DNA of 64,000 nucleotides, taken from positions 544,001 to 608,000 of the forward strand of contig CAWJET010000001.1 in NCBI GenBank assembly GCA_963842085.1, written 5' to 3'. The translations under genes were made by a program, and so were the position numbers. Position 1 is the stretch's first letter; every line of letters begins with the position of its first letter. The DNA is from an uncultured delta proteobacterium. Its GTDB lineage: Bacteria; Desulfobacterota; Binatia; Binatales; Binataceae. Under the pieces are notes generated by a model. The model was not told the DNA's origin. It worked only from the letters and a program-made list of their open reading frames with translations, and searched no databases. This document shows positions 475 through 11,125 of the stretch, in pieces.

Positions 475-2165
<1,691 letters not shown>

Positions 2166-5832: not shown

Positions 5833-6455
5833 TCACCAGCATCCCTTGATCCGTGAAAAACGACCACCAGTGGTGACACGCGGCAGGTCGTCCCATTCAA
5901 CGCTGCCGGGTTTGGGTAATGGGATGTACCTAAATGGCTCCGGTGCGGTGATGTAGTTGAACGCTCCGCAGGCGGCATCTACCTGATCATCATGTGCGTA
6001 CTCCCGCTCATTGGGGCTAAATTGCTCGCATTCTTCCAGGAACGCTTCGTTCCAAGCGCTGCGCAGCAGTTTCAGGTTGCCGGCCTCGGCAGCCGCTCGG
6101 AATGGTTGTGACCGTTCGAACTTGGTACCCCTGACTTGATCGGCATAAACCGGATACCCCAGTAGCAACCCCCGTCGCATAGCGTCGATCCATAGCGCGC
6201 TACCGCTCCCGGGCTCCTGTTGCAAGACAACGCGTATGTTACGGCTGTCTTGACCTGCGATATTCGCAATGAAGCTTTCGACTTCATGAGGGGTGCCCTG
6301 CATGCGCGCCACATGGAGGATATAGCCGACCCCATTGCGTGCGATGCCGTATTTGACGCCTGCAGTAAAGTCGCTGGTCTTAGTCTTTTGGTAGGCGGTG
6401 TCCCAATAACGTATGATCTCCAGTTCGGCGGGTGGCGCATCCACGATCTGGAACC
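5833..6455 (-). pseudogene. Phage terminase large subunit, C-terminal nuclease fragment truncated at the IS1111 end
   Basis: RYWDTA...SDFTAG, QEPGSG, HDDQVDA motifs; ATPase half missing. Confidence 0.85.
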
Positions 6456-6547
6456 TGATGGGATGGACCGCTCCCTACTGATAACGGCCTCAATGGGCCA
6501 AGGTGGTACGTTCGACCACCAACAATCGAAGCAGGGAGGGTCCGAAG

Positions 6548-7588
6548 ATGCAGGTTACTACGGTCGGGATCGATCTGGCAAAGAACGTGTTCTGTCTTCA
6601 CGGTTGCGATGCACAGGGCAGGCCGGTGTTGCGCAAGCAACTCGCGCGGCGGCAGCTGCTGAGCTTCGTCGCCATTCTGCCGCGGTGCCTGGTGGCGATG
6701 GAGGCATGTGCGAGCGCGCACTACTGGGCGCGCGAGATTGAGAAGCTCGGTCACCAGGTGCGGCTCATCAGTCCCAGGTTCGTAAAGCCTTACGTCAAAG
6801 CCAACAAGAACGACGCCAGCGACGCCGAGGCGATCTGCGAGGCGGCGAGCCGGCCGTCGATGCGCTTCGTCGCCGTCAAGAGTACCGCGCAGCAGGAGGT
6901 GCAGGCGGTCCATCGGGTGCGCCAACAGCTGGTGAAAACCCGAACTGCCCTGGTCAACCAGGCGCGCGGACTGCTGGAATTCGGCATCGTGGTCGCGCAG
7001 GGAGTTGGGCGCCTGCGCCGCGCCTTACCTACCATCCTCGAGGATCGGGAAAACGGACTCAGCGGAGTGATGCGCGAGCTGCTCGGAGAGATCGGCGAAC
7101 GTCTGAGGTTCATCGATGATCGCCTGCACAAGTATGACCTGACCATCCAGCGGCTCTTCCGCCAGGATGAACGCTGCCAGCGAGTGGCCGCAGTTGAAGG
7201 CGTGGGTCCGCTGACCGCCACCGCCCTGGTCGCTGCGGTGGGCAACGCCACCGACTTCAGAAGCGGGCGCGAACTAGCGGCCTATCTCGGACTGGTTCCG
7301 CGCCATCGCGCCAGCGGCGGGCGCACGGTGCTGCTCGGGATCAGCAAGCGTGGCGATCGTTACCTGCGCACGCTGCTGATTCACGGTGCGCGCTCGGCCC
7401 TGCTCCGGATCGAGCGGCAACGCAGTGCGCGCGCCATCTGGGCCGCGCGGCTCAAGCTTCGCCGTGGATCTAATGTGGCGGCGGTTGCGTTGGCGAACAA
7501 GAATGCGCGAGTGCTGTGGGCGCTGCTCAACCGACACCAGAGCTATCAACCAGCGCCGTTTCCCGCCCGCGTCCCCCAAAGTGGTTGA
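6548..7588 (+). CDS. IS110 family (IS1111 group) recombinase/transposase
   Basis: GIDLAK, MEAC, KNDASDA, GLVPRHRASGG. Confidence 0.95.
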   Translation: MQVTTVGIDLAKNVFCLHGCDAQGRPVLRKQLARRQLLSFVAILPRCLVAMEACASAHYWAREIEKLGHQVRLISPRFVKPYVKANKNDASDAEAICEAASRPSMRFVAVKSTAQQEVQAVHRVRQQLVKTRTALVNQARGLLEFGIVVAQGVGRLRRALPTILEDRENGLSGVMRELLGEIGERLRFIDDRLHKYDLTIQRLFRQDERCQRVAAVEGVGPLTATALVAAVGNATDFRSGRELAAYLGLVPRHRASGGRTVLLGISKRGDRYLRTLLIHGARSALLRIERQRSARAIWAARLKLRRGSNVAAVALANKNARVLWALLNRHQSYQPAPFPARVPQSG

Positions 7589-7624
7589 GGGAACGGCGGG
7601 CGGAAAATGGCTTTACCAGCCCTG

Positions 7625-7815
7625 AGATTGTGCAGGCTGTAGCGGAGAGCATGATGGCGAACCGGTCGGAACCGGCACCTTCTCGAACCTGGCCACACAC
7701 AAGGCCTTCGAGGCCGTGAACCTGATCAGGCGAAGGTGCGCGAACTTCCATCTGGGCCCGGGGCACAAAATGACGCCCCACTCAACGAGGCCGAATATAT
7801 GACTGCAACCGGATC
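7625..7815 (+). ncRNA. Putative bridge/seek RNA downstream of the IS1111 recombinase
   Basis: Target loop carries GCCACACACA (7692-7701) and GAACCTG (7718-7724); donor loop carries TTCCATC (7746-7752) and ATATATGA (7795-7802); boundaries approximate. Confidence 0.8.
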
Positions 7816-7866
7816 ATCGCTCATCAAACTCCACAAACAGTCTTGCGCCCGGGAGCGGTCCATATA

Positions 7867-7919
7867 TGTGTGTGGCGAATTGCTGATTCTGGGGAAATCA
7901 GTAATTCGCCACACACACG
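7867..7919. repeat. Long DNA hairpin, copy 1 (IS1111 target)
   Basis: TGTGTGTGGCGAATTGCTGATT-7 nt loop-AATCAGTAATTCGCCACACACA; 7873-7919 is the exact reverse complement of 10544-10590. Confidence 0.9.
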
Positions 7920-8113
7920 GGGCCGGCCGTCATGTTCGGCAGATCGAATTGTGCACGAAGCATGGCAACGTCGTTATCGCGCGCGCGCGGCCTTGAGATT
8001 TCCGATCGGCGGTTCAGATAAGGAACGGGCCAGCGAGGGAGGGGGGCCATTTCGCCGGCCCGCTGCCGACTGGTGAAAGGAAGGAGGCAAACACTAGCCA
8101 GCGATCTCCTGAC

Positions 8114-8136
8114 TACTAAATTGCCGCGCGAGCGTC
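8114..8136 (+). repeat. 23-bp direct repeat, copy 1
   Basis: TACTAAATTGCCGCGCGAGCGTC, identical at 13815-13837. Confidence 0.8.
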
Positions 8137-8411
8137 CAACGTCGGTGATACTCAGCCCCGAATTAAGACAGTACCGGTGGCCTGATGGCTTGGTGGCCTT
8201 GTTCTTCTCGCGCTCGAGCTTGCGCAGTTCCAGCTTGCGGTCGCGCTTCAGCCGGCGGAGTTCCTCGGCCCGGTCGTGCAGCCGATCCACGGTTTCTGCT
8301 TGCTTAGAGAAGGCGCGCCGAATCGAGCTTTTAGCGCAGCATCGCTCACGATCGCCGCGCGCGGATGCCGGCCCCCGCCCACGGTGGTGTACCCTAATAA
8401 ATCGATCGCGC

Positions 8412-8899
8412 TCAGTGGGCCAAGCGCTTTAGTGACAGTCGATGAAGCGGTAAATCGCCGGGCGTTCGAGAACAGTAACTCTTCAGACCCGACGGCATCG
8501 CGAGCATCGCCTGCATCGCTTGGTACGGAATCGGTGCGATCGAATCTCTGATCGCTGGACCGATCGAGCGCAAAGGCCGGAGCGCCTTCTCGCCCGCTGC
8601 GAGATCTCCCGACCAGCATGCGGTGATGCAGAAGGCGGGCGCGCCTGCAAGAAGGCCCGCGGTCGCGATCACGGTAAGTTCGTCCGGCATCGAAGAGTCC
8701 TTGCGACGTCCTCGGCGCAGGTGCACCGGGCAATCAGCGCTGGCAGTTTGTCGAAGCATCCGTTCCAGAGCTTGCGCGCGTCATCATAGTCGTGCTCACC
8801 AGGTCGCACGATGGTTCCCCGCAAATGAGACTTGAACTTGCCAATCGCAGATTCGTCGACGGCTTTGCCGTTGGTGGATATCACTGCTTGATTGTTCAT
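8412..8899 (-). pseudogene. FAD-binding oxidoreductase (BBE-like) remnant with internal deletion
   Basis: N-terminus YDDARKLWNG..PALIARC..EDV joined out of frame to a mid-protein segment PDELT...GEKALRPLR. Confidence 0.7.
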
Positions 8900-9013
8900 T
8901 TGGTGTTCCTGCACCGACCATTTGCCGCATCTTACTAAACTACCCGCTGGCGAGCTCAAAAGTTACTTCGCCACGGTCATCGAGTTCGCCATTCCTATCT
9001 CGCTTCAAGATCG

Positions 9014-9538
9014 CTAGAGCGCGGGCGCGGGGGTCCCGGGCGCCGACGCGAAGCCTGCCGGCAGGTCTTTTTCCGGAGTGATCCGAATCGCTATCCGGTC
9101 TCCGCTCGCAAAACTCGCGCGGCTCGGCCCGACCACGGAGTTCATCATGCCATATTTCTTCGGATAGTCGGTCAGGATCTTGTCCACCACAGCGGCATCG
9201 TTCGTGATCTCTGCCTTGCCGATAAAGCAGGGACCGTTGAGCCCGCCGATCCACACGATCACCGGGCTACCGCGTCTGATGCGCTTGTCCTTCCACGAGC
9301 CCTTATGCGCCTGGATGAAAAGCAGTGCGCGGTTGGCGCTCAGGGTGAACCACACGGGCGCCGGCGTGCTCTGATTGCCGTCCTTGCGCACGGTTGCGAT
9401 ATAAACGAGCGTGGCCTGGTCGAAGGCCTTCAGCTCAGGATCGGAGAACCCCGCGCAGCCCGCCGGTCCCGCGGTCATAATCGAGATGGTTAGCGCCGTC
9501 GCGACGGCGAGAATCGAAAGTGTCGCGAATCTTTTCAT
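9014..9538 (-). CDS. Secreted PNPOx-like/DUF2255-like split-barrel protein
   Basis: Signal peptide; IATVRKDG..PAPVWF, YPKKYG. Confidence 0.7.
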   Translation of the reverse strand: MKRFATLSILAVATALTISIMTAGPAGCAGFSDPELKAFDQATLVYIATVRKDGNQSTPAPVWFTLSANRALLFIQAHKGSWKDKRIRRGSPVIVWIGGLNGPCFIGKAEITNDAAVVDKILTDYPKKYGMMNSVVGPSRASFASGDRIAIRITPEKDLPAGFASAPGTPAPAL

Positions 9539-9914
9539 TGTTCGCCTCCGTTCCGAGCGCTGTTTATGTTCCATCATGGCGCGTTCGCCAACATCATGGC
9601 TGGGTCTCGCGGCAGGGGCCAGTCCCGAAATCACACGTGGATTATCACAATTGGCGCGCGATGGCTCAGTCTGCAGCATCACCGTGGTGAACACATCGAG
9701 CCCGAGCGCACGAACCATTCTGAAAGGAGCGATCGGAACGACCGGATGGGCGGCGACGATCGCTCGGTTTTGAGGAGCTGCTACGACCTAATTCTGCGGA
9801 GTCAATGGTTGGTATTTTCTAGCGCGAATGGCTATTGAGAGAGGTTGGGCGCGAGTCTGAGCGGTTACTCAAAGGATCAGCTAGGTAAGGCCGGCGAGCC
9901 AAAAGGAGCGAATC

Positions 9915-10151
9915 TTGGATTTGCAGAAAATAGTGGCAGACTTGAAGAAGGAGCGAGACCGACTGATTCGTGCCATTGCGGCGCTCGTGGGATCAGCCTC
10001 GCAACGGGGTGCTAAGAAGGAGCGTGCCAGAGCTCCTCAGCGCGCAGGAGTGAAAAAGAAGAAGCGCGGAGGTCTCACCCCGGAGGGCAGAAGGCGGTTG
10101 TCGCTAGCGATGAAGAAGCGCTGGGCAGAGCGCAGAAAGAAGGGTTCGTAG
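9915..10151 (+). CDS. Small basic protein, paralog of 3616-3942
   Basis: TTG start with AAGGAG RBS; DLxxIxAxLKxE..RAIAAL and LTPEGRRRLSLAMKKRWAER. Confidence 0.7.
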   Translation: MDLQKIVADLKKERDRLIRAIAALVGSASQRGAKKERARAPQRAGVKKKKRGGLTPEGRRRLSLAMKKRWAERRKKGS

Positions 10152-10261
10152 AAGACTGCCGCATCGACGCTGCGATGACGGACCGAGATAAAGCATTCGC
10201 CATCGAGGGATGCGTTAGGACTTCCGCTCGCGCTGAGAGAGCGGACACTCCAGTCAGGCCG

Positions 10262-10545
10262 CTAGCGCGGCGTGAGCAGCACCACGGGGATGTCGCGTTT
10301 CGTTCCGGCCTGGTAGTTGTCATAGTCGGGCCACTGGGCTGTCATGATCGGCCACACGCGCTTCTTTTCTTCGGCCGTCGCAGTCCGCGCCCGGACCGGA
10401 ATCACTTTGTCCCACACCTGGATCTCCACATCGGGGTGGGCGAGCAGGTTTTTGTACCACCCAGGATGGTCGGGCGCGCCACCTTTCGAAGCGACAACCA
10501 GATAGTTGTTGCCGTCGCGCCCGTAAATCAGCGGGAATTTTTTCG
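10262..10545 (-). pseudogene. Deazaflavin-dependent nitroreductase (Ddn-like), 5'-truncated
   Basis: Hand translation: KKFPLIYGRDGNNYLVVASKGGAPDHPGWYKNL...YQAGTKRDIPVVLLTPR*; cut at hairpin copy 2. Confidence 0.85.
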
Positions 10546-10590
10546 TGTGTGTGGCGAATTACTGATTTCCCCAGAATCAGCAATTCGCCA
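10544..10590. repeat. Long DNA hairpin, copy 2
   Basis: 47 bp, reverse complement of 7873-7919. Confidence 0.9.
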
Positions 10591-10671
10591 GAGTCACCCC
10601 AACTGCAAAGGCTCCCCAAAGCATAAGTTGGCTTACAATAGAACCATGTTACCAAAAATGCATGCCAGCCC

Positions 10672-10757
10672 GTCAACCACCGCGTTGTCAACCACCCTAT
10701 AGCGTCAACCGGTTGACGGTTGACGGAGAGCAGTTCGCATTAGACTGGCTCATCCAG
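10672..10757 (+). repeat. GTCAACC repeat array plus att-like core
   Basis: GTCAACC at 10672, 10687, 10704; inverted at 10711, 10718; then GAGA-G-CAGTTCG-N4-AGACTG-N3-CATCC. Confidence 0.65.
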
Positions 10758-10956
10758 CGGACGGTCAGAGATTTTTCGGGGCCTCTCCGGATGAATGATC
10801 GCCTTGGCACGAAGCTCGATCGCAGCGCCCGCCGTGACGAAAGTTCCATCTATGCCTGACGCACAAAGGGGTCGCCATTATCGACGTTAGGCGTGCCCGA
10901 GATGTATCGTGAATGGAAGCCGAGACGGCAGCGGCCCTTATGGCCCTGATCGAAAC

Positions 10957-11125
10957 ATGGGCACCAAGGTTTCGTCGGTCCTGAAGCGCAAAGGTCATGA
11001 TGTTGTCACCGTCACGCCGCGCCAGACAATCGCGTCGGTGGTCGAAGTGCTCACCCAAAATCGGGTCGGAGCCGCGCCGGTGGTGAACGAGGAAGGTCAA
11101 CTCATAGGGATCATCTCCGACAGAT
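10957..11125 (+). pseudogene. CBS-domain protein N-terminal fragment
   Basis: VSSVLKRKGHDVVTV...VGAAPVV...LIGIISDR, then unrelated sequence. Confidence 0.7.

Follow-up and report, generated by a model that had tools for sequence, protein, structure and literature searches.

IS4321 and IS5075, two insertion sequences of the IS1111 family, target the terminal repeats of Tn21-type transposons. For other members of this family, Siddiquee et al. (2024, PMC11187229) have described a guiding seekRNA with a short form of 70–100 nucleotides (nt) and a long form of 145–170 nt, terminal extensions that measure 7 (or 6) bp at the left end and 3 bp at the right, and, for ISEc11 and ISXne4, natural retargeting. 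Here we consider a stretch of 64,000 nt, called the window, from an uncultured delta proteobacterium of the Binataceae (assembly GCA_963842085.1, contig CAWJET010000001.1, positions 544,001–608,000, forward strand). Positions 6456–7868 of the window are in all likelihood an intact insertion sequence of the IS1111 group, the recombinase of which is guided by an RNA from the non-coding region 3′ of its gene. An IS1111 element with a downstream RNA whose guides spell out the insertion site had been proposed in a sequence-only reading of the window. All motifs and coordinates of that proposal were confirmed by a reading of positions 6200–8200, and the proposal itself is supported by the Pfam and NCBIfam matches, by the element's ends and by the covariation described below.

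The element, which is 1411 bp long, shows every sequence-level feature that defines the IS1111 group (see Table 1 for coordinates). The left extension is 7 bp (TGATGGG, counting one core copy) and the right one 3 bp (ATA), as is usual in this family. The arms of the subterminal inverted repeats covary in relatives, those of IS-B, a paralogue in the same genome, being ATGGACCCAGCCC with GGGCTGGGTCCAT. Non-coding DNA amounts to 90 nt on the left, and to 278–280 nt between the stop codon (7588) and the end of the element (7866/7868) on the right. The two junctions share the 2-bp core only, and the right end always faces the body of the adjoining repeat, which corresponds to site- and orientation-specific insertion without target duplication.

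The 346-residue protein matches PF01548 (E 5.6e-17) and PF02371 (E 1.2e-22), and thus has both the DEDD (RuvC-like) N-terminal and the C-terminal domain of the group. It scores 346.6 bits against the NCBIfam model NF033542, 'IS110 family RNA-guided transposase' (cut-off 140); with the protein type already named there, the novelty is smaller than had been claimed. The segment GLVPRHRASG of the translation was found to be the C-terminal GL-P----S(T)G motif, the serine of which is presumably catalytic. In an alignment of the C-terminal part with the IS621 transposase (PDB 8wt6, E 6.2e-5), this segment lies opposite GLTPRRYESG. By amino acid identity, the nearest named relatives in the plasmid collection are ISShdy1 (47%), IS4321 (44%) and IS5075 (43%); the top plasmid match reaches 57%, and the collection holds no named relative above this value. 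A blastn search of the element against the same collection returned 1129 records, none of which covers at least 80% of the query, and no close named element. The closest relatives overall are found in metagenome-assembled genomes (MAGs) of Binataceae or 'delta proteobacterium', with 81–97% identity.

The non-coding region contains a conserved RNA scaffold. The 3′ regions of 14 elements, namely two copies of the window element, IS-B and 11 relatives from public genomes, were aligned, and the structure was obtained with RNAalifold and then written by hand. On this structure, 94.7% of the cells are able to pair, compared to 28–40% when the partners are slid by 1–3 columns. Six compensatory pairs were found, all of them in the closing stem of the target loop, while the other helices are conserved but uninformative. 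We have also considered an extra stem between CCTG (7688–7691) and CAGG (7727–7730), but it is lost in several relatives in the alignment and was dropped.

A covariance model built from this alignment, called R1, was applied to 80 loci with genes for relatives of the protein (36–97% identity); it matches 63 of them, in all cases on the coding strand and 3′ of the gene. Elsewhere, R1 matches the DNA 3′ of a gene of the IS4321 family, located on a plasmid of Klebsiella (35.9 bits, E 2.3e-10), of another IS110-family gene of Klebsiella (70 bits) and, weakly, of one of Xenorhabdus (14.4 bits). A scan of positions 6000–11000 with Rfam, at E values up to 1, gave no match inside the element; the matches outside it, to nhaA-I (10434–10483, 21.5 bits, below threshold) and ar14 (8021–8123, 20.9 bits), are weak and unrelated. 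Loop one alone measures some 80–90 nt (roughly 7660–7742; ~83 nt) and the two loops together ~147 nt (7660–7806), sizes that fit the short and long seekRNA forms published for the family (PMC11187229).

The two loops carry the guides. That the right guide precedes the left one, as the sequence-only reading had it, agrees with the published IS1111 seekRNAs (PMC11187229). The right target guide, GCCACACACA, occurs four times in the window, where 0.08 occurrences are expected: once as the guide, once in each arm of the adjoining repeat, and once in a repeat at 10546. In relatives, this guide usually matches at 7–9 inner bases. GAACCTG, the left target guide, has a second copy at 7686–7692. This copy is part of a scaffold segment (NAACCTG) that relatives keep irrespective of the target they use, and it is therefore not a guide. 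For the left donor guide, a match of 8/8 had been given, based on ATATATGA at 7795–7802; as the eighth base is unreliably matched in relatives, 7/7 is the figure that stands.

The guides covary with the flanks of the elements that carry them. In a set of 11 elements with different guides, each guide region was scored against the flanks of every element, and the cognate total was reached in 0 of 100000 permutations. Cognate right guides match at 7–10 of 10 positions and cognate left guides at 5–7 of 7, the non-cognate means being 5.91 and 4.75, respectively. A larger set was made up of the 63 R1 matches minus one partial locus (L086) and one with a short flank (L043), that is, 61 rows with 51 distinct guide pairs. 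Here the right guide matches at 7/9 or better in 32/51 cognate pairs versus 84/2550 non-cognate ones, and the left guide at 6/7 or better in 25/41 versus 84/1640, the left end being locatable in 41 cases. For each of the two target guides, the observed sum was reached in 0/20000 permutations. In 32 of 42 distinct relatives, the left donor guide repeats the right end and the core as an exact 7-mer, and more than ten different 7-mers are represented (0/20000 permutations). A compensatory change is seen in a metagenomic variant (L104), in which the left guide CTTCTTG lies behind a CTTCT-TG junction. As a positive control, the same reading was applied to an IS4321-family copy located beside a Tn3-family transposase gene; its right guide is complementary to TT-CCGTTTT, and its actual right flank is TT-CCGTTTTCTGAGACGACCCC. 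We take this flank to be a Tn21-type terminal repeat, which agrees with the title of a reference in one paper.

The insertion sites give a consistent picture. An exact search of metagenome contigs with 18 nt spanning the right guide yielded 46 loci, of which 30 are elements of the window type; the other 16 fall in unrelated genes by chance and were excluded. Together with the three genomic copies and two copies from MAGs, these 30 elements form the set for the site logo. Of 28 readable right junctions, 25 have TGTGTGGC and one has TGTGTGGG; a further junction is displaced by one base, and the last is unrelated. Unrelated flanks in near-identical elements had been named as decisive against the guides; instead, nearly all of these elements share their right flank. 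On the left, 13 of 14 unique flanks have CC before the core. Of the five non-core bases of the left guide, all are matched at two sites, four at six sites, three at five sites and two at one site (L140 and L149 are counted once, with four matches). The right guide is thus followed closely and the left one loosely. The part assigned to GAACC in the sequence-only reading was overstated in this respect, its CC being what persists. According to Durrant et al. (2024, PMC11208160), zero to two mismatches are usual in IS110 elements.

The target is a low-copy palindrome resembling a repetitive extragenic palindrome (REP). A census of the genome allowing up to two mismatches gave 40 half-sites, from which 12 full 51-bp palindromes result, and 3 of these 12 are occupied. 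The consensus of the outer edge of the repeat is (A)CC TGTGTGTGGC, which means that the left guide covers the repeat's final bases. CC-TG-TGTGTGGC is present in no fewer than eight unoccupied arms, including ones with AAACC and CAACC and the opposite arms of two occupied repeats. It had been pointed out that only the copy preceded by GAACC is occupied. This is correct among the copies in the window (7867, 7908–7917 and 10546), but does not extend to the genome, where the two other occupied copies lie behind GACCC and TTACC.

Full copies of the element are present at three places in the genome (C1:550456, C1:3241035 and C2:1664632), with identities of 100, 97 and 88%, all with open frames. Their left flanks before TG are GGAACC, GGACCC and CTTACC, and the same palindrome, TGTGTGTGGCGAATT ... 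AATTCGCCACACACA, lies to the right of each. The paralogue IS-B (C1:1494283-1495576, minus strand) is 69% identical. It has the junctions TTTTGGCC-TG on the left (TGGCC-TG) and TG-CACCCCGA on the right, and its guides correspond to them: TGGCCTG matches on the left at 7/7, TTGGGGTGCA on the right at 9/10 as the reverse complement, and the left donor guide ATACATG fits its own right end, CATACA+TG. Decayed or orphan copies of the RNA scaffold were found at C1:2581468-2581677, C1:1580473-1580680 and C2:1291459-1291622 (165, 89 and 74 bits), the first of them 3′ of a truncated transposase gene. With 30 near-identical elements in metagenome contigs, at no fewer than 14 unique left sites, the element has probably been active recently.

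Recombinases that are 81–85% identical to the window protein are accompanied by other guide pairs and lie at other sites (L019; L020/L024-26), and on their sequences these relatives are to be regarded as cases of natural retargeting. Retargeting of the window element would be expected from such natural variants, and it is on these, together with published work on other elements, that the description of the recombinase as 'programmable' in the sequence-only reading would have to be based.

We now consider how the element may work, given the observed anatomy, protein family, conserved scaffold, guide–flank covariation and site logo. Going by the homologous systems in the literature, the serine/DEDD recombinase would be bound by an RNA from ~7650–7810. 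Loop one, closed by 7675–7682/7732–7739, would pair with both strands of the repeat edge, and the target guides, which overlap on the TG core, would fix both the insertion site, on the palindrome's outer edge, and the orientation. Loop two (7740–7806) would pair with the joined ends of the element itself, CATATA+TG and TG+ATGGGA. The movement would take place via an excised circle, with recombination at the TG core leading to insertion in a single orientation. In the circle, the joined ends would form a −10-like TATGAT (TA + TG + AT), 16 nt after TTGCGC (7843–7848), in agreement with the junction promoter reported for the IS1111 family (PMC11187229). From the published work on IS1111 and IS110 elements, we infer that the RNA is made, is bound by the protein and is required, and that the circle is formed.

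As the right end is tracked strongly by positions 7795–7801, we argue that loop two probably serves as a genuine donor loop in the elements of this clade. We go one step further, tentatively and with not quite an even chance of being right, in suggesting that the long IS1111 RNA of the clade may be a complete two-loop bridge RNA. In such an RNA, the left donor guide would read the right end plus core, the right guide of 8–10 nt would dominate the targeting, and the left target guide would need little more than CC and the core.

A number of observations weigh against the picture developed here. The mismatch of the right donor guide falls on the first core base, and this guide covaries weakly (cognate mean 6.36 versus 5.98, with 48/20000 permutations as high), which is due to the left ends hardly varying. 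The left target guide is matched 5/5 in merely 2 of the 14 unique sites, and one of the 28 right junctions, that of L135 (AGGAGGGA), is unrelated to the guide. In single-sequence folding, the 280-nt region has a z value of −1.48, with 17/200 shuffles as stable, and the 151-nt region one of −2.23, with 5/200 shuffles as stable; the minimum-energy fold of the latter pairs part of the right guide. Single-sequence folding thus gives weak support, and the alignment was relied on instead. Metatranscriptome contigs from four runs in three studies overlap parts of the element, including its non-coding region (for example 7491–7814 in X18), and of the repeat, but they belong to relatives, carry no strand or level information and may reflect DNA carry-over, so that they do not establish expression. 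Finally, a simple promoter scan of 6300–8000 gave no promoter internal to the element.

The two-loop reading has to be weighed against the possibility that loop one alone acts, as a short seekRNA of ~80–90 nt (~7660–7742). The protein would then read the ends through the subterminal repeats and the target-derived flanks, and the likeness at 7795–7801 would have another cause or be a relic. This possibility draws on the finding that a 70–100-nt RNA with the target matches alone sufficed for ISEc11, and on the same paper leaving the role of the 145–170-nt form open and reporting that the target flank is needed for excision (PMC11187229); the imperfect and barely covarying right donor guide of the present element points the same way. 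We nevertheless consider it unlikely, because the left donor guide is exact in those 32/42 relatives over more than ten 7-mers (0/20000 permutations), the stems of the donor loop are conserved, the ~147 nt of both loops correspond to the published long form, and donor loops were predicted by Durrant et al. in IS1111 members (PMC11208160).

The guides themselves could be questioned on the grounds that the right guide is identical to the repeat arm and that the repeat is abundant around the copies of the element; the guide-like matches would then be a captured piece of target DNA, or a recognition site at the DNA level, rather than RNA guides. However, relatives in unrelated, non-repeat sites match at the same two positions of the scaffold. 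Moreover, the two segments are of opposite sense and overlap on the core alone, as expected for pairing with both strands, they are just 10 and 7 bases long and no repeat fragment, and homologous regions co-purify as RNA with IS1111 transposases (PMC11187229), all of which makes this explanation very improbable. The decayed relatives in the same genome (C1:2581468 with its truncated gene, C1:1580473 and C2:1291459) raise in turn the question of whether the window copy is a fixed, immobile relic, the pattern being a record of past activity. We find this improbable, given that the frame is intact in 3/3 copies, both ends are perfect, a second copy with 97% identity lies at another locus, and at least eight free CC-TG-TGTGTGGC arms are left.

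Table 1. Features of the insertion sequence and of the adjoining repeat, in window coordinates.
Feature	Position	Strand	Remark
Left junction	GAACC 6451-6455, TG 6456-6457, ATGGGA 6458-6463		sequence
TG core, left copy	6456..6457	+	junction identical in 3/3 genomic copies
Left extension ATGGG	6458..6462	+	with core, right-donor half-site
Left subterminal inverted repeat ATGGACCGCTCCC	6463..6475	+	13/13 complement of 7851-7863
Transposase/recombinase gene, 346 aa	6548..7588	+	sole long gene of the element; ATG preceded by GGGAGGG
Predicted bridge/seek RNA region	7650..7868	+	extent covered by covariance model R1, 220.4 bits
5′ hairpin CGGT/ACCG	7663..7674	+	4 pairs, invariant in 14/14 sequences and so neutral on pairing
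Target-loop closing stem, 5′ arm GCACCTTC	7675..7682	+	pairs with 7732-7739; 6/8 pairs change on both sides
Right target guide GCCACACACA	7692..7701	+	10/10 reverse complement of core plus right flank; complementary to top strand
Inner hairpin GGCC-TTCGA-GGCC between target guides	7703..7715	+	85.7% of cells paired (14 sequences), no compensatory change
Left target guide GAACCTG	7718..7724	+	7/7; same sense as left flank plus core, would pair with bottom strand
Target-loop closing stem, 3′ arm GAAGGTGC	7732..7739	+	pairs with 7675-7682
Donor-loop closing stem, 5′ arm GCG	7740..7742	+	RNAalifold; 100% paired with 7804-7806, one-sided change only
Right donor guide TTCCATCT	7746..7753	+	against TG+ATGGGA: 6/8 Watson-Crick plus one U-G wobble
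Donor-loop inner stem, GGCC 7755-7758 with GGCC 7789-7792, around variable hairpin	7755..7792	+	96.4% paired, no compensatory change
Left donor guide ATATATG	7795..7801	+	7/7; same sense as last 5 right-end bases plus core
Donor-loop closing stem, 3′ arm TGC	7804..7806	+	RNAalifold, alignment
Right subterminal inverted repeat GGGAGCGGTCCAT	7851..7863	+	partner of 6463-6475
Right junction	CATATA 7861-7866, TG 7867-7868, TGTGTGGC 7869-7876		sequence
Right extension ATA, 3 bp	7864..7866	+	sequence; rule in PMC11187229
TG core, right copy; first two bases of the adjoining repeat	7867..7868	+	sequence
REP-like palindrome, 51 bp, TGTGTGTGGCGAATT ... AATTCGCCACACACA	7867..7917	.	element on left arm

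The TG core, by which the sequence-only reading had described the recombinase, turned out to be nothing unusual: the cores in relatives are TG, CG, TT, CT, TA, AG and CA. The clade of the window element has TG at both junctions. In three relatives with 68% amino acid identity on public MAG contigs (L021, L022 and L023), all four guides read the core as CG, with TG at both DNA junctions (target guides: right ...GTCG, left ...TTCG; donor guides: left ATACGCG, right ...CATCG), and the left guide matches poorly (3/7). This would need a G–T wobble on the top strand and a C–A mismatch on the bottom strand, or else off-target insertions. In many distant relatives (for example L034, L054, L030, L033, L039, L028, L071, and L154 of the IS4321 family), the second base of the core at the left junction is A (TA or CA), independently of the core in the guides and at the right junction (TG, TT or CG). 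This fits a 7-bp left extension that belongs to the element and brings its own version of the core.

Some further observations concern the surroundings of the element. The lone sigma-70-like site in 6300–8000 lies in the left flank, at 6388–6417 on the plus strand (TTGGTA, 18 nt, TATGAT), and is directed towards the element; in the window copy, the transposase gene could be transcribed from it by read-through. An empty copy of the palindrome is found at 10546–10590 (plus strand), with a degenerate right arm (GCCAGAGTCA), the left flank TTTCG and the weak nhaA-I match just upstream. The palindrome alone (window 7867–7919) is present with varied neighbours in several contigs from RNA libraries (X19 and X20), which places copies of the repeat, perhaps transcribed, in wetland and peat communities. 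In a search for a REP-associated tyrosine transposase to which the repeat could be linked, one weak Y1_Tnp match was obtained (C1:1118947, 33.1 bits), and it is near no repeat copy of the census.

Window positions 1035–1994 (minus strand) hold a different IS110-family transposase gene, of 319 amino acids (PF01548 88.7 bits, PF02371 63.9 bits). There is no R1 match beside it, and for this reason the gene is probably part of a different subgroup, in which the RNA may lie upstream. At 5833–6444 (minus strand), ending 12 bp short of the element's left end, an open reading frame encodes the C-terminal nuclease domain only of a terminase large subunit (Terminase_6C, E 2.9e-11). The N-terminal half was not found to the right of the repeat, and the orthologue in a related genome (G013, 71% identity) continues upstream, so that the window copy has the appearance of a truncated remnant of a prophage, with the repeat and the element at its border. 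An empty orthologous site was sought by comparing the left flank with 40 genomes of relatives; G013 alone matched, at 71%, with the terminase gene continuing there, and is thus no empty site.

The window element leaves the knowledge of the mechanism unchanged; its use is that of a clean example and of a candidate for engineering. With it, the IS1111 group gains a clearly delimited ortholog from a soil lineage that has been little studied, complete with a natural target (the edge of a 51-bp palindrome), the TG core, a logo built from 28 junctions on the right and 14 on the left, and close relatives that appear naturally retargeted. This set is a convenient start for studying the reading of donor and target by IS1111-type RNAs, and especially the need for the second loop. 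For annotation, it means that the 3′ non-coding region is to be treated as an RNA gene and the adjoining palindrome as an insertion hotspot. If the two-loop reading is true, it would give a function to the 'long seekRNA', the role of which is left open in print (PMC11187229). It would also define a compact recombinase (346 amino acids, an RNA of ~150 nt, a TG core) with at least three natural guide pairs on recombinases of at least 81% identity.

Compared to the known systems, the element is most similar to the IS1111 elements with a seekRNA, ISEc11, ISPa11, ISKpn4 and ISPst6 (Siddiquee et al. 2024, PMC11187229). Their transposases have 330–350 amino acids, versus 346 here, and they have in common with the window element the 13-bp subterminal repeats, the 7/3-bp extensions, the non-coding region 3′ of the gene, a top-strand match located 5′ of the bottom-strand match, that is, the right guide first, and a target duplication limited to the shared core; ISPa11 also targets a REP. 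The differences are the host lineage, the edge of a 51-bp palindrome as target, and that the present element is known from its sequence alone.

The bridge RNA of IS621, of the IS110 group (Durrant et al. 2024, PMC11208160), is alike in having two loops and four core-containing guides, with left guides pairing to the bottom strand and right guides to the top strand, an imperfect or discontinuous pairing of the right donor guide, and a REP target. It differs in that the RNA lies upstream of the gene, in the left end, with the order of the guides reversed, subterminal repeats of 2–3 bp and a CT core, and the similarity of the proteins is distant (E 6.2e-5, C-terminal part only).

ISPpu9 and ISPpu10 of Pseudomonas putida (PMC12288879) are likewise IS110-family elements located in REP sequences, with a small-RNA module 3′ of the gene and extra RNA-only or truncated copies elsewhere in the genome, a likeness of description and not of sequence. 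The stand-alone small-RNA modules of ISPpu9 resemble in this way the orphan scaffold copies found here, whereas its downstream RNA, Ssr9, is reported to be dispensable for transposition (PMC12288879). IS4321 and IS5075, finally, have proteins with 44% and 43% amino acid identity to that of the window element; R1 matches the non-coding region of the IS4321 family, and the guides read alike. The core of IS4321, however, is TT instead of TG, with TA as the copy at its left end, and its target is a transposon end, whereas the window element is inserted in a chromosomal repeat.

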